A stretch of 64,000 nucleotides of DNA from positions 32,001 to 96,000 of IMG/VR virus record IMGVR_UViG_3300032326_002451. The stretch is one strand, 5' to 3'. Under the pieces are notes generated by a model that was not told the origin of the DNA, searched no databases, and worked only from the letters and a program-made list of their open reading frames with translations. The position numbers and the translations under genes were made by a program. This document shows positions 8,163 through 46,792 of the stretch, piece after piece (positions within the stretch are counted from its first letter, which is position 1; each line of letters starts with the position of its first letter). Origin of the DNA: a virus.

Positions 8163-8163
8163 A

Positions 8164-30850: not shown

Positions 30851-31945
30851 TTACTTGATCCAAGTAATGAAGTTAAAGTCTACAGTCATCAAACCAGGAC
30901 TCAAAGAAAAGTTCGAAGTATGAACTATTGCTCTTGTTGTGTCAATATCTGAAGAAAGTAATGATGTCCAACCAAATCCAGAAGATGGAGTCAAACCACC
31001 AGAAATTTGAGCAGCATGCCAAAGTGGGTCATATATTTCCACCCTGAAGTCAGCATTCTCGTATCTTACAACACCAGGATCTTGCAATGTCATATCTGTA
31101 GTTCCTGATTGCAAAGATAAGTTTATGGCTTCATTTGCATCTAAAAATGTACTTGATCCTGTTCCGCCACTGTCAGTAAGGTTTTCAAGAAGTACAGCAG
31201 CTTTGCCACTTCCAGAAACTTTCAAGCCAGAAATACCAATAAATGGAAATTGTGTTCCTGGTTGAAAAGTGATTCCTGAGCCAGATCTTGGAGATCCATC
31301 AGCATTTGTGATTGTTAAGTTTGTACTACCTACACCAGTTGCAACATCGTAACCAGTAGCTCCTCCAAGAGTTCCCCAACCTCTGTAGTCATTCCAATCT
31401 CCTGGGATAAAGAAGTATTTCTTATCAGTACTTGCAGCAACATTGATATTTGCTGACATGACAAAATATTTTCTTGATCCAATTTGCACTCTAATATCAT
31501 AGAATTTTGCTAATCTTGTGGGAGTACCTAAAGGGTTCAAAGCTTCAATCGAGCTGCTACTAATTTCGAATGCTGAAGTATTATTTGGATCACCATCAGA
31601 TTCTAAAGTCAGGCTTACACTTGAAGCATCTTGTCCAATAGAAAAATTAGCTCCAGTAAGAATTGGAAGTACAGCAGTTTGAGGATTGAGAATTTCTCTT
31701 ATTTTTTGGTTTGCTATGTTTCTTCCATCCACAGTGGAACCAGCACCAACAAAAATAGGAGCTTCTATTGAAATTGTCTCATCAACAGTGCCAATATCCA
31801 TAACTCTGGCTTTGGGTGTACCTTGAACATAATTGATGGAGCTTGCTTGCATATTCCTATTTCTGGAAAAGCTTGATGCAACAACTTCTTTGCCACCTAA
31901 TTTTACTGACTTATATACACCAAAAAGGTTATTGTTTATAGGCAT
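30851..31945 (-). CDS. Tail-tube-like structural protein (paralogue A)
   Basis: Beta-rich. N-terminal half aligns by eye with 32014..32970 (S...N.(V/I)QG.P......I.....IS...PI). Gly/Thr-rich insertions. Confidence 0.45.
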   Translation of the reverse strand: MPINNNLFGVYKSVKLGGKEVVASSFSRNRNMQASSINYVQGTPKARVMDIGTVDETISIEAPIFVGAGSTVDGRNIANQKIREILNPQTAVLPILTGANFSIGQDASSVSLTLESDGDPNNTSAFEISSSSIEALNPLGTPTRLAKFYDIRVQIGSRKYFVMSANINVAASTDKKYFFIPGDWNDYRGWGTLGGATGYDVATGVGSTNLTITNADGSPRSGSGITFQPGTQFPFIGISGLKVSGSGKAAVLLENLTDSGGTGSSTFLDANEAINLSLQSGTTDMTLQDPGVVRYENADFRVEIYDPLWHAAQISGGLTPSSGFGWTSLLSSDIDTTRAIVHTSNFSLSPGLMTVDFNFITWIK

Positions 31946-32013: not shown

Positions 32014-32970
32014 TTAAGCTATTGTAAAAACTCCATTTCCATAGGATGGTCTGTTGGGGCTCATAAGAGTTGACCATTCTGTAGTCCTTGTCAAAACGCT
32101 TGGTGTGAGAGGAAGTTGAGATATTTTAAATAAAGGTGTTATGTATCTTGCGGTTATAGGTCCAATTTTGAAAGTTAGATTTTCACCTTGCATCCAACCA
32201 CCGTGAATAAATGTGTTAAGCTCCACGCCACTTCTTAGTAACTCAGTGAAAGAACCTGTCCATTTGACACCTGATATTCCCATAAATTGAATTTGGTCAT
32301 TTCTTGTTGATGCTATTCCAGACTCTTCTGTTTGATATGGAATTAAAAATACAGGAGTTTCCACTTGATTTGTTATCGTTAATGAAAATGAAGTTATGGT
32401 TCTCATGGATGATTCTTCTCTTGAAGCATCACAATCTCCCCAAGTCAAGGCTCGCCCAAGAACATCAAAACTGCCTGGAACTGCAAATTCTGAATTTGTT
32501 TCAGAATCAATCATGCCTTCAAAATTAATTTGTAAACTTACAGCTTCATTTTGCGAACAATTTAATGTAAGGGAATTTACAACCATAGAATTTATTTTTA
32601 GCAGTTGATTGTCATCAGTTCCGCCATTTTCAGCTGTTATGTTATTATAAACAAGCAAATGATTAGTGTCCATAGATAATGCAGAAATTGGATTTTGTGC
32701 ATGATTTAAAATTGCAGTTATTGCTGGTTCTAAAATAAATTCATCATTGACTCTGATAGGACAAGAGATACTTCCTGATATTTTTTTAAATTGAATATTC
32801 GATATTGAAGAACCAGGACCACCTTGGATGAAATTATTTACAGTGTCTATCTCTTGAGTCTGATTTATGTTACATGAGTCAACAAGCAAATAATGTCCAT
32901 TGATCTTTATACTTCTTGTAATAAGACCAGTTGCAAATTCAGCTCTTGTAAGAATTCCAGGATAAGCCAT
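32014..32970 (-). CDS. Tail-tube-like structural protein (paralogue B)
   Basis: VNSLTLNC....VSLQINFEG, LTW, ITSFSLTITNQV...WTGSFT pattern typical of tail tube folds. Confidence 0.5.
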   Translation of the reverse strand: MAYPGILTRAEFATGLITRSIKINGHYLLVDSCNINQTQEIDTVNNFIQGGPGSSISNIQFKKISGSISCPIRVNDEFILEPAITAILNHAQNPISALSMDTNHLLVYNNITAENGGTDDNQLLKINSMVVNSLTLNCSQNEAVSLQINFEGMIDSETNSEFAVPGSFDVLGRALTWGDCDASREESSMRTITSFSLTITNQVETPVFLIPYQTEESGIASTRNDQIQFMGISGVKWTGSFTELLRSGVELNTFIHGGWMQGENLTFKIGPITARYITPLFKISQLPLTPSVLTRTTEWSTLMSPNRPSYGNGVFTIA

Positions 32971-33272
32971 TAGACATACCTTGCATCTTCAACTTGAAAA
33001 AAACTTTTCCATGAAGATGTTACATTTCCATAAGTAAACCATGAATATTTCCACTTACCAATAACATCTATATCAAGGTCAATATAATAAATACCAGTAC
33101 TTTCATTTACAATAGCTGGAGTACTTGCAGTTGTATATGTTGTATAGTTTGTTTCACCAGGTTTCTCAAGCTCAAATTGAATTGATTGAGGATTTGTCAA
33201 AATGCCATCAATATCTCTGATTCTTGCTTTAATTCTAATAGTTTGATTTGTTAAAATAACATCTGACTTCAT
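32970..33272 (-). CDS. Small Ig-fold virion protein
   Basis: D.DG.LTNP...STGIYYIDL...GKWKYSW pattern. TAATG coupled on both sides. Confidence 0.55.
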   Translation of the reverse strand: MKSDVILTNQTIRIKARIRDIDGILTNPQSIQFELEKPGETNYTTYTTASTPAIVNESTGIYYIDLDIDVIGKWKYSWFTYGNVTSSWKSFFQVEDARYV

Positions 33273-36200
33273 TAACTTGTGCTCCTATAATTTAAATCAA
33301 CTTCAATAGTTTGTACTTTAGAAAGTGTGCTGTTTATGTCCTCTAAAATTTCAATATCAACTTCAATAGTTTGTAGTTTTTCATACCATCCTACGACTGG
33401 AATGTGAATTACAGTGATTTCACTTTCAATAGTTTGCTTTCTTTCATACCAAGAATGGATATTTCCTGGGAATTGAGGAATCTTAAGTTTATGTCTGCCT
33501 TGTCTCTCAGCTGTTCTAATACCATAAGGTCTTATGAAACTTTCACTATATAGTTTGTGTAAAGTGAATTTTTTGGTTTTATAAAGATTAATATTGACTG
33601 TATCGGATGCAGTCAATGGTGTATCGAATATCACCTTACCTTCTAACGGATAAAGTGTATATCCTGAACTTAGAATATTAGAGTTGACTATGACTTCTGC
33701 AAATGTGTAGACTGATGAATCCCAGAAGTTGACATTTACTCCATCAATAGTAACAAATATTTCCGTACTCGAGCCGAAACCATTCAATCTGTAAAGTGAT
33801 AAATCAAATTCGCCATTGTGAACCCTTTGTTCACTACTTATGGCCCAAGGATAAATTCTGTCTCTTCTTACAAGTTCGTGATAACCAATTGCTTGAAGAG
33901 ACTCAATTGTATATGGATAAATTCTTGATATTGCTTTTAACTCATGAAGACCTAATATCTCATCACTTATTATTGAATAAGGATTTATTCTTGATACAGT
34001 CGTTAGCTTATGCAATCCAAGATTTTCAAGACTTGTTATTGTATATGGTGAAATTAAGTATCCAACTTTTTCTAAGATATGTAAACCTAAGTTTGAAATA
34101 TCCTTTATTGCAGATGGATAGATGTTATAGTTTGAATTAAGTGTATGTAATCCAATTTGTTCCAAACTTGCAATAGAGTAAGGTCTTATGTCTGAGAAGT
34201 AAACAAATCTGTGTAAACCTAATTTTTCATCATTTGAAACAGCATATGGATAAATATTTTTTACATTCGTTAGTAAATGCAAGCCCGTAGTTTGATCTGT
34301 AAATATAGATGTTGGCCTAATATTTATTGGTGGAATGAATATTGTGTGAAGACCAGTTTGTTCATTACTTACAATACTATAAGGAATAATTGGATATTCA
34401 TATACAAGTCTATGATTTGATGCTTTTTCAATAGTCTTGACAGGATATGGTTGTATATTTACAGATCCAGGTAATAATGTTGGTGGCTTCGGATATAAGT
34501 CTGATGGAGAAGGAACAATTGGACCATAACCAGGCAGTGTTGGGAATGAATTGTTTAGGTAAATGTATTGACCATATCTCAAGGTCATGACACCACCTGT
34601 ACCACTATCTACTATCAATGAATATGGATATATAAATGCTCTTGTAGTAAGTCTGTGTCGCCCCAATCTTTCAACGCTTGATATTGAATATGGCTCTATG
34701 CCAATGTTGTATCTAATCTGATGCAAACCAACATTTTGATTTGTAAGAATTGAATATGGGTAAATAGCCTTAATATTTGATAAAGTGTGAAGACCTAAGA
34801 ATTCATTACTTCTAATAGAGTAAGGATTGATCTGTATTCTGCCAGCCAGTGAATGATAGCCAGTTTTGCTGATATCTAATATTGTATACGGATAAATATT
34901 TTTATTAGAAGTAAGCCTATGTAACCCTAATATTTCATTAGACTTGATAGAGTATGGATATATTGCCTTTATGTTTGCAAGTGTATGCAATCCAAGAGTT
35001 TCACTTGAAACAATTGAATAAGGCAAGATATTGTTTGTACTTCTTAATCTGTGTAATCCAAGCTTTTCAACAGAAATTATTGTGTAAGGCAATATATTTT
35101 TGACTGTAGAAAGTGTGTGTCTTCCAAGATTTTCTGTTGATCTAACTGTATATGGATAAATATTATTGATAGATCTAAGAGTGTGAAGGCCTAATTTTTC
35201 ATCAGAGACTATAGAATAAGGAAGTATTGTAATATTTCCTAATAAACGATGTAAACCAAGTTTTTCTATTGACTTAATTGAGTATGGTCTTATGTCTACA
35301 CCAGCAATAGAAAGTAAATGAACATTAGCTTTTTCAGTAGATAGTATTCTGTATGGATAAATATAATTTAAAGCACGTAATGTATGTAGGCCAGTCTTTT
35401 CAATAGATAAAATTGTGAAAGGATAAATATTTTTTGAAGTTGTGAGTCTATGCAAACCAAGTTTTTCAATTGACCTAATCGAATATGGCACTATTCCTCT
35501 TATTGAAGTAAGTACATGAAGGCCTAACTTTTCATTTTCCTTAATTGTGTATGGATATATATAAGCTAAACCACGTAATGTGTGTAGTCCTAATTTTTCT
35601 ATAGATTGTATTGCTGATGGGAAAATGAAATTGCCACCAGTTGTAAGTATATGCCTTCCCAATCTTTCCGTAGTTCGAATAGCATAAGGCCTAATATTTG
35701 CCAGCGTATTCAAGGTATGAAGGCCTAAAAGTTCAGTGCTTACAATTCTATAAGGTAAGATATTTGTTACTGATGAAATCCTGTGTAATCCAAGCTTTTC
35801 ATTTGTGATAACACTGTAAGGATAAATATTTTTTGCAGATGTAAGTCTGTGTAATCCTAAAATTTCATTTGATCTTATAGAATAAGGATTGATATTATTT
35901 CTTGCATTTAATCTATGAATTCCAAGATTATCAATGCTTATGATTGAATATGGAATGATTGAACTAAATTTACCTAATCTATGTAAACCTAATTTTTCAC
36001 TTGAAATTATTCTGTAAGGTAAAATATTTACATTTCCAGGTGAAAGTCTATGAACGCCCAATAATTCTGTTGATCTGATAGAATATGGTCTTATTCTCGC
36101 TAATGATGTAAGTCTGTGTCGTCCTAAATTTTCTAAACTTATGATTGTATATGGGATTATATTAATTCTTGAAGATAATCTGTGATATCCCAAACGATCA

Positions 36201-39200
36201 ATTGTGAGCACAGAATAAGGTCTTATATTTACAGATCCTGGCACTAAGTTATGAAGGCCTAACTTTTCCACTCCCAGGATTGATGCGGGTCTTATGTCTG
36301 ACCCTAATGCGATTAAGACATTTTTACCAGAAACACGCTCTGTGCTAATTAATGAATAAGGTAATATATTTTTAAGTGATGTAAGAGTATTTCTGCCTAA
36401 TTTTTCTAAACCTAAAATTGATTTTGGATAAATATTGTAAAGACTTCTTAAAGTGTGTAATCCAGTTTTTTCAGCAGTTGAAATACCTCTATTTGCTAAG
36501 TTAATAACAATTCCACCAAAAGTAAGTCTTGGTAACCCCAATCTCTCCGCTGAAGGAATACCATAAACATAATCAACGAATTGAGCTTCAATATTGGTTA
36601 GGTGATCAAATGCAGAATCACTAAATGCTGTGATACCCATGTAACCTTTAGTGTAAGTGGTATCAGTTACAATTAAAGTAGCAGCAGTTACTAAGGATCC
36701 ACCACCAGAGGCATATAATTTAGCTGTTATTACACCGGAATCTGTCCATGTTACAATAATTCTATACCAAGTGTTTGGTATGACGAGTCCAGGTAAGTTG
36801 TACGAAGCTAAAGTTGTTGTTGTACCACCAATAGTTCTTCTTAAAGAGAATGATGGATTCCCAGTGGTATTTGCAGCGTTGACCACAGCAAAGTAACCAT
36901 TTCTCACATCAGATGCTTGTACGCCAAAAGCTAAACCAGCTATACCATTACCGCTTAGAACTTGCAACCAACCTGCCCAGTAGAAGTCTGCGCCTCTGAG
37001 ATATTCCAAAGGATATGCAATTGTTGCAGTACCAGCTGTATTTGGGAATGCAGTAGATCTTCTTAAAGATTTTCCTTCAGGGTATAAACTGTAGGCTTGT
37101 TCCCATATAAACTGATCACTATTTCCAAATGTAAATACATTTACATCATCTAATTTATCGTAAAATCTATTTCTAAATCTTAATCCTGATCCTGTTGACT
37201 CTACAGATAAAATAGAATATGGTTTTATAAATCTTAATAATTTATGCAAACCAAGTTTTTCTGTGTCTCTGATTGAGTAAGGATTGATATTTCTTTGACT
37301 TTTAAGAGTATGTCTGCCCAAATTCTCAAGAGTTTTTTGAGTGTAAGGTCTAATATTGCTTGTAAGTTTTGTCTGCAAAGAAACATTTTCAAATGTTCGA
37401 ATAGAGTATGGCAGTATGTTTGTTAACGCACGTAATCTCTGTCTGCCAATATATTCAATAGACCTAACACTATAAGGAACAATTGATTTTATGGTAGATA
37501 ATCTGTGCTGACCAAGACTTTCTACAGAAATAATTCTGTATGGTCTTATATTTGAAATACCCGTGGACAATCTTACAAATGAAGATGTTTTTTCTGTTGA
37601 AATCAAAGAAATATGAATTATATTTGATATACCACGTAAAGTATTTCTGCCTAATCTTTCAATAGATCTGATACTATATGGATAAATATTCTTTAGTGTT
37701 CTAAGGTTATGTATTCCTAAAAACTCATTAGATATAATTCTATAAGGTCTAATGTTGTATGCATTTTTAGATACAGTATGGTATCCATTTCTCTCTGTCG
37801 ATAAAATAGTTCTTGGATAAATATTGTAATTTGAAGAAATATTTTGCCTGCCAATAATTTCAATGCTTCTTATTGAATATGGTAGAATATTTTTTCTGGT
37901 AGTAAGTCTATTAACATTTGTAGTTTTTTCTGTAGATCTAATTGTGAATGGAAGAATATATGCCGCAAGTCCGGAAATTATTTGTCTTCCTAAAAATTCT
38001 GTTGACCTTAAGGAATATGGTCTTATATTTACTCCACTTACTGTAAATCTAACAAAACTTGAGACAAATTCCATAGATTTTATTGAATATGGTCTTATGG
38101 AAGCAATATTTGATAATGTGTTTAGCCCAAGTTTTTCTGAATCCTTGACGGGATAAGGTCTTATGAATAATGATCCGGCTGAAAGTCTATTGTATCCAAC
38201 TCTTTCAGTGCTTCTTATGCTGTACGGAATTATATTAGCAATTGTGGAAAGTCTATGTACTCCAAGTCTTTCATTAGAATAAATTCCATAAGGAATTATA
38301 GATCTAAAAGCTGATAATGCATGGTGCCCAGTTCTTTCAATGGACAAAATCCTATATGGGTAAATGTTTCTTATCGAAGATAATCTTGTGATATTTCCAA
38401 TTTGTTCAATAGATCTTATGCCGTAAGGTCTAATGAATGAAAGACTTGAAAGTCTTTGCTGGCCAAGATTTTCAATTGACCTAACACTGTACGGAATAAT
38501 ATTTTTTATATTTGATAAATTGTGAATTCCAAGCTTTTCAATAGAATTTATTGTGTAAGGATATATATTTCTTAAAGATGAAAGTCTATTGAAACCACTT
38601 ACAAGTTCTATCTGCTTTATCGAATAAGGAATTATAGATCTTATGGTAGATAATCTATTTTGGCCCAGTAATTCTGTAGATGTTATTGAGTATGGTAAAA
38701 TATTTTTTATTGATGATAATCTGTGATATCCAGTACTTTGAGTTGTAAGAATTCTATATGGATATATATTGTAAGCTGCTTTAAGTAAAGTTGCTTGCCC
38801 AAATCTTTCTAAATCAAATATAGAGTACGGGATAATATTTTTTCTTGTTGTTAGGACATGATATCCATTGTTCTGAACACTAAATATAGAATATGGTCTT
38901 ATGTTATTATTGCTGCTTAGTCTCTGAATTCCAATAAGTTCTGTTGTTCGTAAACTATATGGATTTATTGTTACTTGACCTGAAGATAATCTATTTCTTC
39001 CTAATCTTTCTGTTGATAAGATTGGGTAAGGTATAAGTTGACTTCCTTGAGCAAAAAATCTATTATAAGGCGCCAAAAATTCTATTGACTTAATACTATA
39101 AGGAATAATATTAATTGCGCCTGGTGTTAATCTTGACAGGTTGCCTAATTTTTCTATTCCTAAAATACTCGGAGGAAGGATATTATTTTGAGCTGATAAT

Positions 39201-40984
39201 CTTACTGCATTATTGGTTTTTTCTGAAGAAAAAATAGAATAAGGTCTTATTGAAGAAGCTCCAGGAGATAATGTAGCCAAACCTAATTTTTCTAAATTTA
39301 AAATTCCTGAAAAACCTTCAATAAATTGAGCTTCTATATTTGTTAAGTGGTCAAAAGCAGTATCACTGAATGCTGAAATACCCATATACCCTGTTGTATA
39401 TGCAGTGTCTGTAGCAGTCAAAATACCAGCAGTGACTAAAGACCCACCTCCAGATGCATACAGTTTAGCTGTAATTAATCCAGAAGATGACCAGGTGACA
39501 ATTATTCTGTACCATGTATTAGGAATTACAAGTCCTGATAAATTGTATGAAGCTAATGTGGTAGTTGTACCGCCTACTGTTTTTCTCAGTGAAAATGATG
39601 GATTTGCTACTGTATTAGCAGCATTTATAACCGCAAAGTATCCATTTCTGACATCTGAAGCTTGAACTCCAAAAGCCATGCCAGCAATTCCATTACCACT
39701 AAGAATTTGCAACCATCCAGCCCAATAAAAATCTGGACCCCTATCGTACTCCATTGGCAAAACTATAGTTGCTGTGCCAGCAGTGTTTGGAAATGCAGTA
39801 GATCTTTTTAAGGTTTTTCCTTCAGGATATAAACTATACGCTTGTTCCCAAACAAATTGGCTTGTGTCTCCATAGTTAAAAATATTTACTTCATCAAGCG
39901 TGTCATAAAATCTATTTCTAAATTTATTAATTCCCAATTTTTCAATTGATTGTATAGATCTTGGGTAAATTGAATTTGAAGCTGATAGTCTTTGGTTACC
40001 AATTGTTTGATTACTTGAGATACTTGCTGGATTTATTCGTTTTTGTGTACGTAAATTTGTTCTTCCAAGAATCTCATTAGATCTTATTGCATATGGATTT
40101 ATATTTTTAGTGCTTGCTAATCTTGATCGACCTAAATTTTGTGCAGAAACTACAGAATGAGGCCTGATTCGAGCAGCGCCTTTTAATATTGTTGTACGCC
40201 CAAGAAATTCTAAAGTCTTGGCTGAGTATTGATTGATATTTCTGACAACACGATGTCGTGTAGAAACAAATTCAGTAGAGCGAATTCCATATGGATTTAT
40301 GTTATCTGCAGTCGTTCCACCAGTGTAGGTTACAACAGCATGTATTCTATCAATTTTTGCAAAATCTATGCCACCTGTAAAACCATCTTTGAAAAGATTG
40401 GTTGACAAAACTACACCAAAGTTTGAACTTTTTATTTCACTTGGTGTCCATGTAGTTCCCCAAAGATAACTTGTATTACCTAATGTTTCAGTTTCTTCTG
40501 TAATGTTCCAATAAGGAGGTGTTATAGAATTAGCTGTAAACCAGTCAGTGCCTGTCTCATTTGTACCATCTTTAGATAAGTAAACTCTGTCTAAAGAACA
40601 GCCATAAACAGCTTCACCTACTTCATTCAGTTTGTGTTCAACGTATACTTGTATTCCTGTAATAGTAGCGTCATTAGGTATAGATGATGCTCCAGAACCA
40701 TTTTTTACAATTAAATAAGATGAAATACCATTGTCAATTACAATAACATTTACATTAATTGTTCCAATAGTGTCTGCTAATATTTGAAATCCATATTGAT
40801 TGTCAGAAGCAAATAAATTTTGAGGATTGCCACTTGGAAAAGTAAATCCAACATCATTATTTATAAGATTCGTTCCATCAGAAGCCCAAGTTAAATAACC
40901 ATTGTTGGCATTTCCTTGAACATAGTACATTCTGTCATGTAATTTTTGAGCATAAGCTGAGAATGTAATTGTTACTGTAGGCAT
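33272..40984 (-). CDS. Giant repeat protein (roughly 75-80 x ~22-aa IxPYSIxSxExLGxHxL repeats) with two lectin-like domains; putative fibre spine
   Basis: Repeats are directly visible in the translation. Two 200-aa duplicated beta-sandwich domains. C-terminal triple (WYE)KxQTIE repeat. Confidence 0.8.
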   Translation of the reverse strand: MPTVTITFSAYAQKLHDRMYYVQGNANNGYLTWASDGTNLINNDVGFTFPSGNPQNLFASDNQYGFQILADTIGTINVNVIVIDNGISSYLIVKNGSGASSIPNDATITGIQVYVEHKLNEVGEAVYGCSLDRVYLSKDGTNETGTDWFTANSITPPYWNITEETETLGNTSYLWGTTWTPSEIKSSNFGVVLSTNLFKDGFTGGIDFAKIDRIHAVVTYTGGTTADNINPYGIRSTEFVSTRHRVVRNINQYSAKTLEFLGRTTILKGAARIRPHSVVSAQNLGRSRLASTKNINPYAIRSNEILGRTNLRTQKRINPASISSNQTIGNQRLSASNSIYPRSIQSIEKLGINKFRNRFYDTLDEVNIFNYGDTSQFVWEQAYSLYPEGKTLKRSTAFPNTAGTATIVLPMEYDRGPDFYWAGWLQILSGNGIAGMAFGVQASDVRNGYFAVINAANTVANPSFSLRKTVGGTTTTLASYNLSGLVIPNTWYRIIVTWSSSGLITAKLYASGGGSLVTAGILTATDTAYTTGYMGISAFSDTAFDHLTNIEAQFIEGFSGILNLEKLGLATLSPGASSIRPYSIFSSEKTNNAVRLSAQNNILPPSILGIEKLGNLSRLTPGAINIIPYSIKSIEFLAPYNRFFAQGSQLIPYPILSTERLGRNRLSSGQVTINPYSLRTTELIGIQRLSSNNNIRPYSIFSVQNNGYHVLTTRKNIIPYSIFDLERFGQATLLKAAYNIYPYRILTTQSTGYHRLSSIKNILPYSITSTELLGQNRLSTIRSIIPYSIKQIELVSGFNRLSSLRNIYPYTINSIEKLGIHNLSNIKNIIPYSVRSIENLGQQRLSSLSFIRPYGIRSIEQIGNITRLSSIRNIYPYRILSIERTGHHALSAFRSIIPYGIYSNERLGVHRLSTIANIIPYSIRSTERVGYNRLSAGSLFIRPYPVKDSEKLGLNTLSNIASIRPYSIKSMEFVSSFVRFTVSGVNIRPYSLRSTEFLGRQIISGLAAYILPFTIRSTEKTTNVNRLTTRKNILPYSIRSIEIIGRQNISSNYNIYPRTILSTERNGYHTVSKNAYNIRPYRIISNEFLGIHNLRTLKNIYPYSIRSIERLGRNTLRGISNIIHISLISTEKTSSFVRLSTGISNIRPYRIISVESLGQHRLSTIKSIVPYSVRSIEYIGRQRLRALTNILPYSIRTFENVSLQTKLTSNIRPYTQKTLENLGRHTLKSQRNINPYSIRDTEKLGLHKLLRFIKPYSILSVESTGSGLRFRNRFYDKLDDVNVFTFGNSDQFIWEQAYSLYPEGKSLRRSTAFPNTAGTATIAYPLEYLRGADFYWAGWLQVLSGNGIAGLAFGVQASDVRNGYFAVVNAANTTGNPSFSLRRTIGGTTTTLASYNLPGLVIPNTWYRIIVTWTDSGVITAKLYASGGGSLVTAATLIVTDTTYTKGYMGITAFSDSAFDHLTNIEAQFVDYVYGIPSAERLGLPRLTFGGIVINLANRGISTAEKTGLHTLRSLYNIYPKSILGLEKLGRNTLTSLKNILPYSLISTERVSGKNVLIALGSDIRPASILGVEKLGLHNLVPGSVNIRPYSVLTIDRLGYHRLSSRINIIPYTIISLENLGRHRLTSLARIRPYSIRSTELLGVHRLSPGNVNILPYRIISSEKLGLHRLGKFSSIIPYSIISIDNLGIHRLNARNNINPYSIRSNEILGLHRLTSAKNIYPYSVITNEKLGLHRISSVTNILPYRIVSTELLGLHTLNTLANIRPYAIRTTERLGRHILTTGGNFIFPSAIQSIEKLGLHTLRGLAYIYPYTIKENEKLGLHVLTSIRGIVPYSIRSIEKLGLHRLTTSKNIYPFTILSIEKTGLHTLRALNYIYPYRILSTEKANVHLLSIAGVDIRPYSIKSIEKLGLHRLLGNITILPYSIVSDEKLGLHTLRSINNIYPYTVRSTENLGRHTLSTVKNILPYTIISVEKLGLHRLRSTNNILPYSIVSSETLGLHTLANIKAIYPYSIKSNEILGLHRLTSNKNIYPYTILDISKTGYHSLAGRIQINPYSIRSNEFLGLHTLSNIKAIYPYSILTNQNVGLHQIRYNIGIEPYSISSVERLGRHRLTTRAFIYPYSLIVDSGTGGVMTLRYGQYIYLNNSFPTLPGYGPIVPSPSDLYPKPPTLLPGSVNIQPYPVKTIEKASNHRLVYEYPIIPYSIVSNEQTGLHTIFIPPINIRPTSIFTDQTTGLHLLTNVKNIYPYAVSNDEKLGLHRFVYFSDIRPYSIASLEQIGLHTLNSNYNIYPSAIKDISNLGLHILEKVGYLISPYTITSLENLGLHKLTTVSRINPYSIISDEILGLHELKAISRIYPYTIESLQAIGYHELVRRDRIYPWAISSEQRVHNGEFDLSLYRLNGFGSSTEIFVTIDGVNVNFWDSSVYTFAEVIVNSNILSSGYTLYPLEGKVIFDTPLTASDTVNINLYKTKKFTLHKLYSESFIRPYGIRTAERQGRHKLKIPQFPGNIHSWYERKQTIESEITVIHIPVVGWYEKLQTIEVDIEILEDINSTLSKVQTIEVDLNYRSTS
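36578..37177 (-). repeat. Copy 2 of duplicated 200-aa ConA/lectin-like domain
   Basis: FRNRFYD...DHLTNIEAQF; about 35 of 200 aa differ from copy 1 by hand alignment. Confidence 0.9.
39323..39922 (-). repeat. Copy 1 of duplicated 200-aa ConA/lectin-like domain
   Basis: Same boundaries and length (600 nt) as copy 2. Confidence 0.9.
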
Positions 40985-41015
40985 TAGATCACCATGCCAT
41001 TACACATAAAAACAG

Positions 41016-41088
41016 TTAAACAAAAGCCCAATCTATGTGACAGACTGCATTGTCTTGAACGAATTTTAGATTGGGTATTTTTGTTTAA
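41016..41088 (-). promoter_or_regulatory. Structured leader hairpin upstream of the 2570-aa gene
   Basis: TTAAACAAAA/TTTTGTTTAA and CCCAATCTA/TAGATTGGG arms with an inner AGAC/GTCT stem. Confidence 0.55.
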
Positions 41089-41156
41089 ATAAAATCTCAT
41101 ACTTGATGCCTTGACCATCACGAAAATATATAATATTATTTTTCTGGATAAGCAAT

Positions 41157-41192
41157 AAAAAAGCCTAATAATAATTGCTTATTATTAGGCTT
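41157..41192 (-). terminator. Intrinsic terminator after the 197-aa/80-aa genes
   Basis: Perfect 14-bp stem AAGCCTAATAATAA/TTATTATTAGGCTT with a 4-nt loop, followed by a U-run on the minus strand. Overlaps an AGG-N17-CAGAAA promoter-like site (41141-41166). Confidence 0.8.
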
Positions 41193-41210
41193 ATTGAGTT
41201 TTAAAAGGTC

Positions 41211-41453
41211 TTAGTTGAGTTTTACGACTTCTTCAGATTGTATTGCTTGAGCTTGCAATACTTGTGCTTCTCTAATTTGTTTAATATCTTCTTCGGTGAT
41301 ATTACCAAATTGAGATTGAAGTGCAATAAGTCTTTGTCTTTCAGTAATGCGATCAGCTGCTTCTAAGACTTCTTGATGTGCAAGATCACGTATCTTAATT
41401 TTAGCATGCATATCGTCTACTAATTCTTGTTCAGTAATATTTAATAAGTTCAT
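41211..41453 (-). CDS. Small coiled-coil protein ending in one copy of the repeat-like motif (putative assembly chaperone)
   Basis: Helical 80 aa. The C-terminus VLQAQAIQSEEVV matches the I-x-x-x-x-I-x-S-x-E spacing of the repeats in 33272..40984. Confidence 0.6.
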   Translation of the reverse strand: MNLLNITEQELVDDMHAKIKIRDLAHQEVLEAADRITERQRLIALQSQFGNITEEDIKQIREAQVLQAQAIQSEEVVKLN

Positions 41454-41462
41454 GATGATTCC

Positions 41463-42056
41463 TTATATCTTGAAGATCTTGTTTACGGAAGTATCCCAAA
41501 CAATGGTGATATCACCACCGTTACCACTGACTGGCATACCAATAGCTGAATCAAAGAAAGCAATAAGATCCATTGAAGTTTCATAAGAATAGTTGGTAGC
41601 AGCAGCAGCAGTAGGGTTGAGTCCACTTGTGTCTCTGTAAATAACAAAAGCATTGATAGCTGCACCAGATGCAACAGCCAATTGAGTTGTTGAAGCAGCA
41701 CTTGCATTAGCTACACCATTTCCATAGTTTGTAGCAACAATTCCTAATGTATTTGCAGCACCAGCTAACCCACCATAAGAAGCTTGTATAGATCTGTGGC
41801 CTGTAGGAATTTGGCTCAACCAAGTAATCGCATAACCTGCTCCTGCAGGTGCAACTCCAGGGTTTGTTCCATCATCTGTACCAGATACAGGGTTCCAAGC
41901 ATAACCTGAAGCTCCAGTAGCTGACCAAACGCCTTGTGTGCCTACGCCAGCGTTTATAAACATGACCTTATAGGATGAACTATTGTTCCATGATAACGTT
42001 GTCGGTTGCTGTGTCAAGAACTTATTTCTTGCCCATGGATATAAAAAATTGCCCAT
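41463..42056 (-). CDS. Virion structural subunit (widespread phage 'N.LY...FL....W...KV / VIY.DT...LIA..D...G.P...NGGDIT..WD...NKIFK' family)
   Basis: The terminal motifs match a common phage fibre/minor-tail protein family as recalled, not searched. Own promoter-like site and RBS AAGGA. Confidence 0.7.
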   Translation of the reverse strand: MGNFLYPWARNKFLTQQPTTLSWNNSSSYKVMFINAGVGTQGVWSATGASGYAWNPVSGTDDGTNPGVAPAGAGYAITWLSQIPTGHRSIQASYGGLAGAANTLGIVATNYGNGVANASAASTTQLAVASGAAINAFVIYRDTSGLNPTAAAATNYSYETSMDLIAFFDSAIGMPVSGNGGDITIVWDTSVNKIFKI

Positions 42057-42102: not shown

Positions 42103-42128
42103 TTTCTATTGATGCAATGTTTCTTCCT
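42103..42128 (-). promoter_or_regulatory. Putative phage promoter AGG-N17-TAGAAA embedded in gyrA 3' end
   Basis: AAGGAAG-N14-TAGAAAAT; the TAG is the gyrA stop codon. Confidence 0.5.
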
Positions 42129-44622
42129 TTGCAATTGTGTTTTCTACAACTACAAGTGTTTGCACTCTGTCTCCGTTATCCAAACCTACTATTTTACTTC
42201 CGATAGTAGTCTTTCCTTTGGATCGAAAATCTTCTACTGACATTCTAACCATTTTTCCTTTCTGAGTTAGAACCAGAAATTCCTTGCCTTCGCTTACTAC
42301 AGCTGCGCAAACAATATTTCCATTACGAGTTTTCTTTTCTGAATTGATAGTTCTGCTCCCTTTTGCATATCTGCCGGACAAAGATTTATATTCATTAGCA
42401 TCAGTTTTTTTACCAAAACCGTTTTCGGTGATGACTAAAATCTCAGAACTTTCATTTCTATCAAGCACAAGCATAGAAACAATTGTGTCATTTTCTTGAA
42501 GATTCATGGCACGAACGCCTTGTCCAGCCCTACCAATAGACCTTACAATGTCTTCAGAGTACCTTAGAGCATATCCATTTGCAGTAATAAGAGCAATGTC
42601 TTTTTCACCGTTTGTAGTTGAAACATGAACCAAAGAATCGTCTTCATTTAGTGTTAATGCTTTAAGTCCACGCTTACGCAAACTTGTGTTGTACTCTCTT
42701 ACTTCACTTCTTTTAATCAAACCATTTTTAGTTACCATAATGAAGTAAGCATCTACATCTAATGATTTCATTGTGATAGTTGATGCAACGACTTCTTCAG
42801 GGGCCAAAGCAAGCAAATTGGCAGTGTGGATTCCCTTGTTTGTTCTTGAAGACAGAGGTATTTCATATCCCTTTTTCTTTAAAAGATTGCCTTGATTGGT
42901 AAAGAAGAGGAACAAGTCATGTGTCGATCCAACATAAATATCTGCAGCTTCATCTTCTTCACGACCCTTGACTGCAATAACACCTTTTCCGCCCCGACCT
43001 TGTGATTTGAAAGTATCTAATGGGACACGCTTTATATAGCCATCTTTTGTAAGAGAAACAACAATTTGCTCTTCTGTGATAAGGTCCTCGTAATTGAAAT
43101 CATCCATTGAAGGGACAATCTCGCTACGGCGATCATCACCAAGTTTTTCAGCAATATCAATCTGTTCTTTAGAAATAAGATTTAGCATTTTCTTTTCAGA
43201 AGATAATTGAGTTGTTAGCCATTCGTTTCTTTTAGTAAGCTTAGAAAACTCATCAGCCATTGAGTTGACATCAAGTTTTGTAAGATTGCCTAATGTAATC
43301 TTGAGGACAGCATCAGCTTGTTCTGGTGATTTTACAAATCCTTGTGAGATGAGTTCTTGTTGTGCCACATTCCTATCATCAGCTTCACGGATGAGCTTAA
43401 TAACCGCATCAATTTTAGTGGTAATCCCAATGAGGCCATCAAGGATATGGAGTCTTCGATTATTCTTGTCCAGTTCTGCATTGAATTTTCTCGTCAAAAC
43501 ATCTTTTCTGTGATTTACAAATGTTTCAACCAACTTAATGAGAGGAACATTTTCAACAACCTTCTTACCATCCATTAGTACAGTAGAGTTAACAGAAAAG
43601 TTTGTTCTAAGACATGTATGCTTCAAAACTAAATTTAAAACTACATTAGTATTAGCTGATTTATGAATCCAAATTCTTACATCCATACCTTTTTTGTTTG
43701 TAAGATTTTTAAGGTTAGTGATACCTTCAATTTTTTTAGATTCAACAAGTTCTTTAATTTCTCGGCAAAATCCCTCAGCAGAACCTCCATATGGAAGAGC
43801 TGTTACCTTGATATATTGCTGACCATTTTTTTCTGATTCAATAGTATGGTAGCCCTCGAGTTGAACTGAGCCTCTTCCAGTTGTAAAGTAATTCTTTATA
43901 CCAGTGTTGCCGAGGATTTTACAAGGAAGAGGAAAATCTGGGCCTGGAACAATTTCCATAATTTCTTCAACAGTAATTTCTGGATTTTTGATATATGCGT
44001 CAATTAGCTTGGCAATTTCACGAAGATTGTGAGGTGCCATAGAGGTAGCCCATCCAACAGCAATACCAGAGCATCCATTGACAATCAAGTTTGGAATCAA
44101 TGATGGAAGAACAGTGGGCTCCATCAGTTCATCGTTGTAGTTAGAAATGTAATCTACAACTTGATTTGATAACTCAGAAATCATTTGGTCGCCAAACACA
44201 GAAAACTTTGCTTCTGTGTAGCGCATTGCAGCTGGTTTATCTTCTGGCGCAGGAGATCCAAAGTTTCCTTGAGGCGAAATGAGAGGGTAGCGTAAAGACC
44301 AATCTTGTGCCATTCGAACAAGAGTTGGATAAACTACTGCTTCACCATGTGGATGGTAGTTTCCTGATACATCACCGCAAATCTTCGCACATTTCTTTGT
44401 CTTACCAGAAGATCTTAGGTTAAGATCATTCATAGCGACTAAGGTTCTTCTTTGGGATGGCTTTAGGCCATCCCTTGCGTCAGGTAGCGCACGATCTTCC
44501 ATAACTGCAAAAGCATAATTGGTAAATCTGTCATCAATTAGTTCGATAAACTCTTTTTCGATAACATGATCCTGCATAACTTCGAGCGGATTTACTTCTT
44601 CAACCTTAGATTTCTTAGCCAT
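42106..44622 (-). CDS. gyrA: DNA gyrase subunit A
   Basis: RALPDARDGLKP, YHPHG, AAMRYTE (catalytic Tyr), PGPDFP, GyrA-box QGRGGKG, beta-pinwheel CTD. Confidence 0.95.
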   Translation of the reverse strand: MAKKSKVEEVNPLEVMQDHVIEKEFIELIDDRFTNYAFAVMEDRALPDARDGLKPSQRRTLVAMNDLNLRSSGKTKKCAKICGDVSGNYHPHGEAVVYPTLVRMAQDWSLRYPLISPQGNFGSPAPEDKPAAMRYTEAKFSVFGDQMISELSNQVVDYISNYNDELMEPTVLPSLIPNLIVNGCSGIAVGWATSMAPHNLREIAKLIDAYIKNPEITVEEIMEIVPGPDFPLPCKILGNTGIKNYFTTGRGSVQLEGYHTIESEKNGQQYIKVTALPYGGSAEGFCREIKELVESKKIEGITNLKNLTNKKGMDVRIWIHKSANTNVVLNLVLKHTCLRTNFSVNSTVLMDGKKVVENVPLIKLVETFVNHRKDVLTRKFNAELDKNNRRLHILDGLIGITTKIDAVIKLIREADDRNVAQQELISQGFVKSPEQADAVLKITLGNLTKLDVNSMADEFSKLTKRNEWLTTQLSSEKKMLNLISKEQIDIAEKLGDDRRSEIVPSMDDFNYEDLITEEQIVVSLTKDGYIKRVPLDTFKSQGRGGKGVIAVKGREEDEAADIYVGSTHDLFLFFTNQGNLLKKKGYEIPLSSRTNKGIHTANLLALAPEEVVASTITMKSLDVDAYFIMVTKNGLIKRSEVREYNTSLRKRGLKALTLNEDDSLVHVSTTNGEKDIALITANGYALRYSEDIVRSIGRAGQGVRAMNLQENDTIVSMLVLDRNESSEILVITENGFGKKTDANEYKSLSGRYAKGSRTINSEKKTRNGNIVCAAVVSEGKEFLVLTQKGKMVRMSVEDFRSKGKTTIGSKIVGLDNGDRVQTLVVVENTIAKEETLHQ

Positions 44623-46741
44623 TGTTTTCTACCAATCTCTTTGCAGACTTTTGAATAATATGCTCTTTGCGAGGAGCAACTTCACTACCCATCAAAACAT
44701 TCAAGATTCTTGATGCTTCTTCAACATCATCAACGGTAACTTTGATAATTTGACGCTTACCAATTTCCATTGTTGTTGTGCCAAGTTCATCAGCATCCAT
44801 TTCGCCAAGACCTTTGAATCTTGTAACTTCTATTTTATCACCATACTTCTTTCTGTAGCCTTCAAGTTCAGCATCAGTATGGATATAAAACTTATCATTT
44901 TTTACATTAACTCTGTACAGTGGTGGTTTAGCTATATATAAATGCCCTTCAGTAATTAATGGCCTCATGAACCTATAGAAGAAAGTCATAAGTAGAGTAG
45001 CGATATGAGCACCATCATCATCAGCGTCAGTCATGATAACAATCTTGCCATATCTTAGATCCTTAAGGCTGAAATCATCTCTAATACCAGTGCCTACAGC
45101 TGAAATAATTGCAGCTACTTCCTCATTTTGCATCAGCTTAGCATAATCATTTTTTTCTGGATTGATAATTTTTCCACGAATTGGCATGACAGCTTGATAC
45201 TCAGGATCTCTTCCACCCTTGCATGAACCAGCAGCAGAATCACCTTCAACAATGTAAAGTTCAGTTGATACAGAATCTTCAGAGTTACAATCTGAAAGTT
45301 TACCTGGAAGTGAACCTGACCTTCCTAAAAATCCTTGTCTTTTGATTGACTCAGAAGCTCTTTTTGCTGCTGCTCTTGCCTTTGCTGCTCTCAAAGCTCT
45401 TTCGGCAATATTTTTTACAATGGTTGGATTTTTTTCGAAGAATTCTGTGAGTGCTTCAGAAAACAATCTGTTAACCACGCCCTCAACTTCCTGAGAACCA
45501 AGCTTACCTTTTGTTTGGCCTTCGAATTGAGGCTGAGGTAAACGAACAGAAACAATGGCAACAATACCTTCACGAATGTCTTCTCCAGTCAGATTAACAT
45601 CTTTTTCTTTCAAAACTCCAGAGCTTCGAGCAAACTGATTTACAACTCTTGTGATACATGTTTTGAACCCACTAAGATGAGTTCCACCATCAGAGGTATA
45701 AATATTATTTGCATAGGTATAGATTGTTTCATCGTCTTCGTCACTATACTGGAATGCAACCTGAACATTAACTTTGCCTGATTTGTTATCAAAGAAAAAT
45801 GGTTTGACTGGATAAACATTTGAACGTGATTTTGCTAAAAATGAAACATAATCAGCAATTCCACCTTCAAAATAGAATTCTTCTTTTGTTCCAGTATGCT
45901 CATTTTTGTAACAGATCTTAAGTCCGCCATTAAGATAAGCAGTTTCACGAAGCCTACGAACAAGAACAGCTTCATCAAATTGAATATTTTTGTATGAGTG
46001 ATTGAACCATGAATTGTACGAATCTGAGTAAACAGAATCTGGATAGTTCATCGATTTAAAACATTCAGTGAAAGCATTTAGATCTACAGGACCAGAAATG
46101 AGAGCTTTACGCCATTTTCCAGAGCATTCTGCAAAAGATTCATCAATCTCAAAATCATCGATAAGAACTTCACGGAATGCATCTTCTACTGCAAATTGGC
46201 CAAAAATATTGTGGTCAGGAGTAAAAACAATTTTTGTGCTGGTAGATGAGGATGTTCCTACTTCCTTTACAGAAGAAACTGGAATACCACGTTCAAAAGA
46301 TAATTGATATTTCTTTTTATCACGGCAAACTTCAACATCAAGATTTAGTGAGAGAAAGTTTACACAAGAAGCGCCAACACCGTGAAGGCCTCCAGATGCT
46401 TCGTATCCGGAACCATCATCACCAAATTTACCGCCAGCATGAAGTTCAGTAAGGACAATTTCCAGTGTGCTACGTTTTTTTGGGTCTTCTTGCTTGACGG
46501 CAACAGGAATACCACGTCCATCATCAATGATAGTGATGCTTCTGTTATCTTTAGAAACTACAACATCAATCTTTGAACAATGTCCAGCCATATGCTCATC
46601 GACAGAATTGTCCAAAATTTCCCACACCAGATGATGAAGACCTTTTTTACCTGTATCTCCGATGTACATGGCAGGTCTGGTCCTGACTGCTTCTTGACTC
46701 TCCAAAATTTGAATGGAGTTTTCATTGTATTGACTGGCCAT
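44615..46741 (-). CDS. gyrB: DNA gyrase subunit B (with ~72-aa insertion in ATPase domain)
   Basis: VRTRPAMYIG, EILDNSVDE, DDGRGIP, LHAGGKF, GGLHGVG, VEGDSA, PIRGK, MTDADDDG, RFKGLGEM. Start at ATG 46741 (MASQY) after AGAAGGA. Confidence 0.95.
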   Translation of the reverse strand: MASQYNENSIQILESQEAVRTRPAMYIGDTGKKGLHHLVWEILDNSVDEHMAGHCSKIDVVVSKDNRSITIIDDGRGIPVAVKQEDPKKRSTLEIVLTELHAGGKFGDDGSGYEASGGLHGVGASCVNFLSLNLDVEVCRDKKKYQLSFERGIPVSSVKEVGTSSSTSTKIVFTPDHNIFGQFAVEDAFREVLIDDFEIDESFAECSGKWRKALISGPVDLNAFTECFKSMNYPDSVYSDSYNSWFNHSYKNIQFDEAVLVRRLRETAYLNGGLKICYKNEHTGTKEEFYFEGGIADYVSFLAKSRSNVYPVKPFFFDNKSGKVNVQVAFQYSDEDDETIYTYANNIYTSDGGTHLSGFKTCITRVVNQFARSSGVLKEKDVNLTGEDIREGIVAIVSVRLPQPQFEGQTKGKLGSQEVEGVVNRLFSEALTEFFEKNPTIVKNIAERALRAAKARAAAKRASESIKRQGFLGRSGSLPGKLSDCNSEDSVSTELYIVEGDSAAGSCKGGRDPEYQAVMPIRGKIINPEKNDYAKLMQNEEVAAIISAVGTGIRDDFSLKDLRYGKIVIMTDADDDGAHIATLLMTFFYRFMRPLITEGHLYIAKPPLYRVNVKNDKFYIHTDAELEGYRKKYGDKIEVTRFKGLGEMDADELGTTTMEIGKRQIIKVTVDDVEEASRILNVLMGSEVAPRKEHIIQKSAKRLVENNG

Positions 46742-46759
46742 CTTACTTCCTTCTGGCAT

Positions 46760-46792
46760 AAAAAAATGCTGTGATTTATATACCACAGCATT
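46760..46792 (-). terminator. Hairpin + U-tract overlapping gyrB -10
   Basis: AATGCTGTG-(10 nt)-CACAGCATT followed by TTTTT on the minus strand. Confidence 0.6.

Follow-up and report, generated by a model that had tools for sequence, protein, structure and literature searches.

A candidate beads-on-a-rope fibre in a jumbo phage: a proposed bead of the Bxb1 gp31 family and a proposed rope of about 79 repeat units

The DNA analysed here is a 64,000-nucleotide stretch (the window; bases 32001–96000) of the 110,315-bp IMG/VR viral contig IMGVR_UViG_3300032326_002451. Its source is a jumbo phage, far removed from the cultured jumbo phages; CheckV rates the contig as 31% complete, so the genome was taken to be ~350 kb. 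A gene cluster in the window encodes a 197-amino-acid (aa) protein (41463–42056), an 80-aa protein (41211–41453) and a 2570-aa protein (33272–40984; the giant), and this locus probably builds a chain-like 'beads-on-a-rope' virion fibre, a much longer version of a kind of fibre that is already known. A preliminary description, made from the letters alone, had singled out the three co-oriented genes, and all three open reading frames (ORFs) were found on the minus strand. Unless stated otherwise, coordinates refer to the window and all features lie on its minus strand.

In the proposed fibre the giant would be the rope, each of its repeat units offering one or two short β-strands. Copies of the 197-aa protein (the bead) would dock on these units, probably as dimers, by β-sheet augmentation, as in the fibres of phages GP4, Bas63 and A1002, and the number of repeats would set the fibre length. 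At the ~27 Å per site of A1002, the result would be a fibre of ~0.2 µm with ~150 beads per rope. Two jelly-roll-like inserts and the end domains of the giant may be displayed or used for anchoring, a conserved terminator after the 80-aa gene would leave the bead in large excess over the rope, and the 80-aa protein, with its C-terminal copy of the unit core, may bind the bead. We infer the physical docking, the dimer stoichiometry, the fibre length and the location on the virion. If the proposal is correct, the fibre would be about sevenfold longer than the longest solved bead-chain fibre and one polypeptide would template ~150 copies of another, with the length written directly in the repeat number, which runs from ~12 to ~90 units in relatives.

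The rope, the bead and their gene pairing

Repeat units in the giant were counted with a regular expression, which found 75, and with a hidden Markov model (HMM) built from 46 exact 22-aa units, which found 78 and missed one degenerate unit, giving a total of ~79. The earlier estimate by eye, of ~75–80 copies of a ~22-aa repeat, was close to this count. The units are spaced by 20–25 aa in the HMM alignment, mostly by 22–23 aa, which is the ~20–24-residue spacing expected of serial docking sites in a chain-like fibre. The unit consensus is K-N-I-Y-P-Y-S-I-R-S-I-E-K-L-G-L-H-R-L-S-S-I, and I3, P5, Y6, I8, S10, E12, L14, G15, H17 and L19 are retained in most copies. The repeats are strongly basic, as had been noted before; the giant has a net charge of +97 and a pI of 9.8.

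The giant begins with a globular N-terminal domain (residues 1–226; 40307–40984). It is followed by a first repeat block of six units (39911–40306; unit HMM), insert 1 (residues ~359–553; 39326–39910), a second block of ~32 units (37169–39325; regular expression and HMM), insert 2 (residues ~1273–1468; 36581–37168), which is a paralogue of insert 1 by sequence, and a third block of 30 units (34574–36580; HMM). Behind a Pro-rich spacer lies a fourth block of ten units (33797–34462; HMM), and then an ~85-aa domain, a lone single unit (residues 2482–2503; 33476–33541; regular expression and HMM) and the C-terminal tail. The N-terminal domain is shared with a 981-aa paralogue on the same contig, with a repeat protein at viral locus L047 and with the 'tail tubular protein A' of podovirus MW202478, and had no Pfam match. 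Sequence searches of the PDB with the N-terminal domain, insert 1, 643 aa of repeats and the repeats of L047 and of Marvin gp88 gave no match. The inserts are possibly ConA/LamG-like jelly rolls: their Pfam matches (Laminin_G_3, E = 0.17; SO2946-like_C, E = 0.03–0.04) both lie under the cut-off, and homologous inserts occur in relatives' giants, one of which (L038) carries four clear Laminin_G_3 domains (E = 5.7e-57). The lectin character that the preliminary description gave to embedded domains was not confirmed for the window's own inserts. When the 197-, 80- and 2570-aa proteins were searched against Pfam and PHROGs, the only matches were phrog_644, of unknown function, and phrog_8501, a minor tail family.

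Two further proteins of this phage carry the unit, both outside the window. The 981-aa paralogue (contig positions 31–2976, minus strand) shares the N-terminal domain of the giant, carries 12 units and differs in its C-terminal part of ~440 aa; it ends a block of large structural genes (821, 304 and 1482 aa). The 304-aa protein of that block (contig positions 5459–6373, minus strand) ends in one complete unit (...QPTGILTQQKLGRHQLVN), which may serve as a lone docking tag for a further component of the virion.

The 197-aa protein belongs to a large family, with 1135 clusters at E ≤ 0.001 (clusters of 50% identity) among 1.8 billion representatives, most of them 135–150 aa long. A 72-member profile of the family (A4) matched chain 9d93_Ra of the PDB, the 'tail wing arm' gp31 of phage Bxb1, with E = 9.5e-20 over residues 2–100 of 106, and alignment of a second profile (A1) with F116 gp48 in hhalign gave a probability of 99.8% (E = 1.6e-27). 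Residues N179-G180-G181-D182-I183-T184 and W187 are invariant. With a match over the β-sandwich core and the C-terminal G-G-D-I-x-[IV]-x-W-D block, the 197-aa protein is, by its profile matches, a true and enlarged member of the Bxb1 gp31/F116 gp48 family of structural virion proteins. On the 110-kb contig it stands alone: no further gp31-like (bead) gene was seen. An AlphaFold2 (AF2) model of the protein was poor, with a pLDDT score (predicted local distance difference test) of 52.6. Three of its top four fold matches among 48,161 chains were 9d93_Ra (Z = 6.9), 8jou_a (Z = 5.7; 119 residues aligned) and 9c39_K (Z = 5.3); Z scores below 8 are common by chance. The latter two chains, from GP4 fibre I and the Sf14 whisker, are solved rope-docked dimers.

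Gp80 of GP4 was also the nearest named Atlas cluster, at 0.88, which was treated as a lead only. Sequence homology between the bead and the Gp80 family (PF23140) was examined in three ways and not found: PF23140 had no match on the whole contig at E values up to 10, it matched one of 72 bead-family members (E = 0.054), and hhalign of profile A4 against a Gp80 profile (A6) gave a probability of 0.3%.

The cluster was then compared across relatives. In the window, the minus-strand order is gyrB, gyrA, 197 aa, 80 aa, a 226-nt spacer, 2570 aa, 100 aa, 318 aa and 364 aa. A 316-kb contig keeps this order from gyrB to the 318-aa gene, with a bead of 202 aa and a giant of 2708 aa (84 units), the proteins of 80 and 100 aa being unchanged in length; its first repeat block has 13 units, against six in the giant of the window. 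Scanning metagenomes for the 197-aa family yielded 44 loci. In relatives with at least 50% identity the order is unchanged and the giants are 1276–2688 aa long with 25–80 detected units; over all giant homologues the ranges are 1276–2708 aa and 25–84 detected units. In a group at ~30% identity, a 134-aa small protein directly follows a 2401–2787-aa giant that has several Laminin_G_3 domains and ~12 C-terminal units, and next come a protein of 84–92 aa that is homologous to the 80-aa protein (E = 1e-16 to 1e-19), then genes of 99, 316 and 339 aa. The three genes thus occur together in relatives down to ~28–30% identity of the bead, where bead and giant have changed places; the set co-occurs widely and survives a change of gene order.

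Outside this clade the same pairing was found in unrelated phages. The window's unit has the core P-x-[SG]-I-x-S-x-E-x-[FL]-G, which is found again at 20–24-aa spacing in the neighbour of a gp31-like gene in Marvin gp88 (five units), at loci L047 (nine) and L044 (13) and in about a dozen further viral contigs. Marvin gp88, which lies just upstream of the gp31-like gp89, starts with five G-I-[PE]-S-A-E-[AE]-F-G units 20–24 aa apart, and the arrays adjoining gp31-like genes in L047, L044 and the further contigs are of the type SPSGIASAEAFGTPTLVFVV. The full unit HMM did not match F116, PalP_Y7 or Marvin, and the links to Marvin and to the others run only through the shorter core motif. In a reverse test, 80 viral loci were chosen by the repeat alone and then checked for gp31-like ORFs. 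Such an ORF was present in 62 of the 80, always on the same strand and 0–3.6 kb away, and in 58 of these 62 the order was bead, then rope; 13 of the 18 loci that had none have upstream flanks shorter than 210 bp. In the window and in its relatives, bead and rope genes likewise lie next to each other. Apart from the repeat, the proteins that bear it have different domains, so that what they share as partner of the bead is the repeat itself, and in these sequence comparisons the bead–repeat gene pairing is independent of locus ancestry. In the set of papers searched, the SAEAFG-type motif is not mentioned for phages. As a general and testable rule, the 20–23-aa unit travels with the gp31-like family across siphophages, podophages and jumbo phages. 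If the proposed function holds, many 'minor tail' and 'hypothetical' proteins could be annotated as rope and bead.

One rope-like ORF was seen with a different neighbour. In the 164-kb contig IMGVR_UViG_3300020057_000027 (loci L216 and L218), the ORF at 5333–11788 encodes more than 2152 aa with ~87–90 unit-core motifs and is cut by the contig end; the 5.3 kb upstream hold no gp31-like ORF, and a 165-aa ORF of unassigned family lies there instead.

Podovirus MW202478 (MW202478.1) provides a compact form of the pair. Its 'tail tubular protein A' (5365–7770 of that locus, L064) consists of a giant-like N-terminal domain, ~11 Thr-rich 22-aa units and an adaptor-like C-terminal domain, the topology of the nozzle-rope of A1002, and a 145-aa distant gp31-like gene (hhalign 92.9%) lies just upstream. 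From this domain order the protein looks mis-named and more like a nozzle-rope or adaptor-rope. The podovirus module also bears on a reading of the giant as a tape measure protein that fixes the length of the tail, with the small genes as tail assembly chaperones. The giant is indeed long and repetitive, and a protein of 318 aa encoded nearby (32014–32970), a conserved member of the cluster by synteny, matches Phage_tube_2 (PF18906, E = 2.3e-7). However, the giant lies upstream of the tube-like gene and not after a tube–chaperone pair; it has Pro and Gly in every 22 residues, an all-β prediction, where a tape measure protein would be mostly α-helical, and jelly-roll-like inserts; relatives' giants carry Laminin_G_3 domains; and a podovirus, a phage type that lacks a tape measure, has the same module. 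From the order of the genes, the composition and the β prediction, this reading was rejected as extremely improbable.

Solved bead-chain fibres and the folding of the repeat

Since 2023, small-protein dimers docked serially on an extended 'rope' have been resolved by electron cryomicroscopy in several phages (PMC12609058, PMC13730344). In fibre I of the Ralstonia podophage GP4, five gp80 dimers sit on a separate rope and gp77 forms a collar (PDB entry 8JOU; Zheng et al., 2023, as cited in PMC12609058). In Bas63/Sf14, the collar provides an N-terminal rope that carries two whisker dimers (PDB entry 9C39; PMC12609058). In the Pseudomonas podophage A1002, 11 dimers are held by β-sheet augmentation on ~268 residues of the nozzle-rope gp39 over ~300 Å (PMC13730344). 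The preliminary description had held the docking mechanism to be undescribed; as fibres of rope and dimers, with at most 11 sites, are already solved for GP4, Bas63/Sf14 and A1002, it is a rediscovery at far larger scale. By sequence, the bead family and the rope motif found here differ from the solved cases.

A1002 is comparable in several respects. Its fibre dimers gp40/gp41 are β-rich subunits of 147–171 aa placed serially on a fibre-dock region at ~24 residues per dimer, its rope has a globular domain and a terminal anchoring domain, and the bead and rope genes are adjacent. It differs in having 11 sites over ~30 nm, against ~79 sites here, and the rope of the window shows no nozzle or platform domain. 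A1002 is a podophage, whereas the locus described here belongs to a jumbo phage with a tube-like gene, its bead is of the Bxb1 gp31 family, and its docking is a proposal. GP4 fibre I likewise has a separate rope protein and beads of ~140 aa, one of which is the 8jou_a match of the 197-aa model, and a small β-rich protein in the same module (the 93-aa gp77 there, 100 aa here); it has only five dimers, and its Gp80 family is not detectably related in sequence to the bead of the window. Next to gp80, GP4 gp79 (8948–9925 of locus L062, minus strand; 325 aa) has short Gly/Ala-rich units of the form x-I-x-L-x-G-x-G, unlike the unit of the window, and from these units looks like the rope of fibre I. 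In Bas63/Sf14 the whisker dimers, represented by the 9c39_K fold match, are similarly held by a rope that extends another virion protein at its N-terminus; in sequence, profile A1 matched 9c39 weakly (E = 0.26) and profile A4 did not retrieve it. That complex is located at the neck and has only two dimers per rope.

A sequence homologue of the bead is gp31 of the tail wing of mycobacteriophage Bxb1 (gp30 base, gp31 arm, gp33 brush; PDB entry 9D93), in which gp31 and gp33 attach to gp30 (PMC12646305). The order of arm, small ORF and fibre-like protein in Bxb1 is the same as in the window. The ~30 residues at the N-terminus and the insertions that the 197-aa form has are missing from Bxb1 gp31, which is present in six copies per tail tip with no repeat array. 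Near the N-terminus of Bxb1 gp33 (14132–14935 of locus L063), one unit-like motif, PFTISSEDPG, was seen by eye at residues ~38–47. The existing structure 9D93 is a place where the bead contact can be looked up: if gp31 grips the gp33 motif there, the docking code would have been proven directly by a structure. A neck fibre of another kind is that of cyanophage A-1(L), which is ~100 nm long, built of many copies of a small protein and encoded apart from the other structural genes; its gp81 trimers join head to tail without a rope, so that its length is not templated (PMC10966104).

To examine the repeat alone, 11 units from the end of the third block (34574–35299) were folded by AF2 with a 16-row alignment of disjoint windows. 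A regular, all-β, solenoid-like model with two strands per unit was obtained, with a pLDDT of 75.6 and a predicted template-modelling (pTM) score of 0.69. Comparison with known structures in Foldseek gave weak solenoid matches only (CsgA, LpxD and an antifreeze β-helix), the best with a TM score of 0.41 and all with E > 0.2. The preliminary description had judged the repeats unlikely to fold alone and had named a confident self-contained solenoid or trimer as one of the outcomes that would refute its proposal. The result falls between the two: a solenoid-like model was produced, at moderate confidence and with no good match to a solenoid.

Because of this model, a self-folding shaft is retained as a rival to docking, one that we consider unlikely but which carries real weight. 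The giant would then be a β-solenoid or β-helical shaft, possibly a trimer, and the 197-aa protein would be no more than an accessory arm or adaptor bound at one or a few sites, for example to link the fibre to the virion, much as gp31 connects the base with the brush in the tail wing of Bxb1. The regularity of the model, the solenoid character of all of its weak matches, the six gp31 chains in the Bxb1 tail tip and the alternation of conserved and variable positions in the unit, which also fits a core and a surface, are all in keeping with such a shaft. Its core, however, would have to hold a conserved Glu, Ser and His stacked coil upon coil. Lone single units exist, at residues 2482–2503 of the giant and at the C-terminus of the 304-aa protein, and they speak for docking because a single unit cannot form a solenoid. 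The lone units, and the Glu, Ser and His conserved in every unit, are more in keeping with docking peptides than with a core. The pairing with the bead is near-obligate whatever the other domains of the repeat protein, and AF2 is documented to over-predict β-solenoids for repeats, with confident but unrealistic models (PMC11795689). Given this bias, the moderate confidence of the model, the single units and the conserved Glu, Ser and His, the 11-unit model was not taken as a refutation of docking.

Several observations nevertheless weigh against a rope with docked beads. Besides the 11-unit model and the small number of gp31 chains in the Bxb1 structure, F116-type phages carry the bead without a recognizable repeat array nearby. 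With no sequence relation to Gp80, the link to solved rope-docked beads is at the level of fold only, and was drawn from a low-confidence model. Charge complementarity is not apparent, the bead having a net charge of −1 and the rope +97. With these points counted, docking of subunits on the repeats, with repeat number setting the length, is the best-supported reading, consistent with the conserved gene pair and with a period close to the ~24 residues per dimer of A1002, and is set back by the solenoid-like model.

The 80-aa protein and the conserved hairpin

The 80-aa protein is helical. Its C-terminal block A-I-Q-S-E-E-V-V (AIQSEEVV, residues 70–77) fits the unit core written as [SAG]-I-x-[ST]-x-E-x-hydrophobic, a motif that occurs once in the 33,321 residues of the contig's other ORFs and that was obtained from shuffles of the 80-aa protein with p = 0.003. 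In the form [AS]-I-x-[ST]-E-E-x-[VA] it is the best-conserved block of the family and is present in all homologues, the most distant included. The full unit HMM gave no match to the 80-aa protein. The similarity of its last residues to one repeat unit, claimed in the preliminary description, thus stands at the level of the motif and not at that of the whole unit. In searches of the giants with the 80-aa profile, two relatives' giants matched weakly (E = 0.002) and the window's own giant did not; these matches were treated as marginal.

Conservation of the 80-aa family extends to all jumbo-phage relatives, with the 84–92-aa forms among its members. It was not found at the 80 loci picked by the repeat alone, and is therefore an accessory of the jumbo-phage clade. 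Binding of the 80-aa protein to the bead is plausible from its motif, and a placeholder role is speculation built on a conserved eight-residue motif. In the fullest version of this idea, which we regard as improbable, the protein would be a clade-specific mimic of the docking strand: its S-I-x-S-x-E-x-V block would fill the groove of newly made beads and keep them soluble or unpolymerized until rope units displace it, in a manner like donor-strand exchange, in a templated heteropolymer of ~150 subunits.

An intrinsic-terminator-like hairpin with a T run (41155–41192) begins 17 nt past the stop codon of the 80-aa gene; the hairpin itself (41192–41161) has a 14-bp stem and a 4-nt loop. It recurs behind the 80-aa gene in nine relatives, where the stem shows compensatory changes, and is therefore a real, conserved terminator, as had been proposed, between the two small genes and the giant. 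The stem, AAGCCTAAT...ATTAGGCTT, is nearly letter-identical in relatives (L015–L034) whose proteins are only ~50% identical; this conservation exceeds the need of a plain terminator, and the stem may therefore also be a protein-binding or processing site. A promoter-like site of its own, which the preliminary description had assigned to the 197-aa gene, did not hold up: the sole σ70-like match lies inside the 197-aa ORF, and the pattern AGG-N19-GAAAAT occurs once upstream, against 1.14 expected.

An excess of small proteins, as the terminator implies, would also suit a reading in which the 197-aa protein is an assembly chaperone for the repeats, like tail-fibre assembly proteins, needed for their folding but no part of the mature fibre. 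A dedicated chaperone would also agree with the strict pairing of the genes and with the order of bead before rope. On the other hand, the family member Bxb1 gp31 is resolved in the virion (9d93; PMC12646305) and bead-family relatives are annotated as virion or minor tail proteins; we consider a chaperone very unlikely.

Neighbouring genes

A 100-aa β-rich protein (32970–33272) is encoded directly after the giant and is conserved in all relatives by synteny. Searches of Pfam and PHROGs with it gave no match; it is possibly an anchor or collar piece. Beyond the 318-aa gene, the last conserved member of the cluster is a 364-aa protein (30851–31945; ORF and synteny). Sequence searches of the PDB with the 318- and 364-aa proteins gave no usable match.

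Full-length gyrB and gyrA (42106–46786) lie directly upstream of the bead gene, and the junction of gyrA and bead is retained in nearly all of the jumbo-phage relatives, an odd but stable neighbourhood of replication genes and a virion module. The contig has a G+C content of ~32% and encodes GyrA, GyrB, Hsp70, DnaJ, a UvsW-like helicase, PhoH and several proteins of 1000–2800 aa. One large protein in the window, of 1952 aa (48034–53892), matches head-decoration and tail-fibre PHROGs in its C-terminal ~100 residues (phrog_2647, E = 1e-41) and by this match is a candidate for another giant virion appendage.

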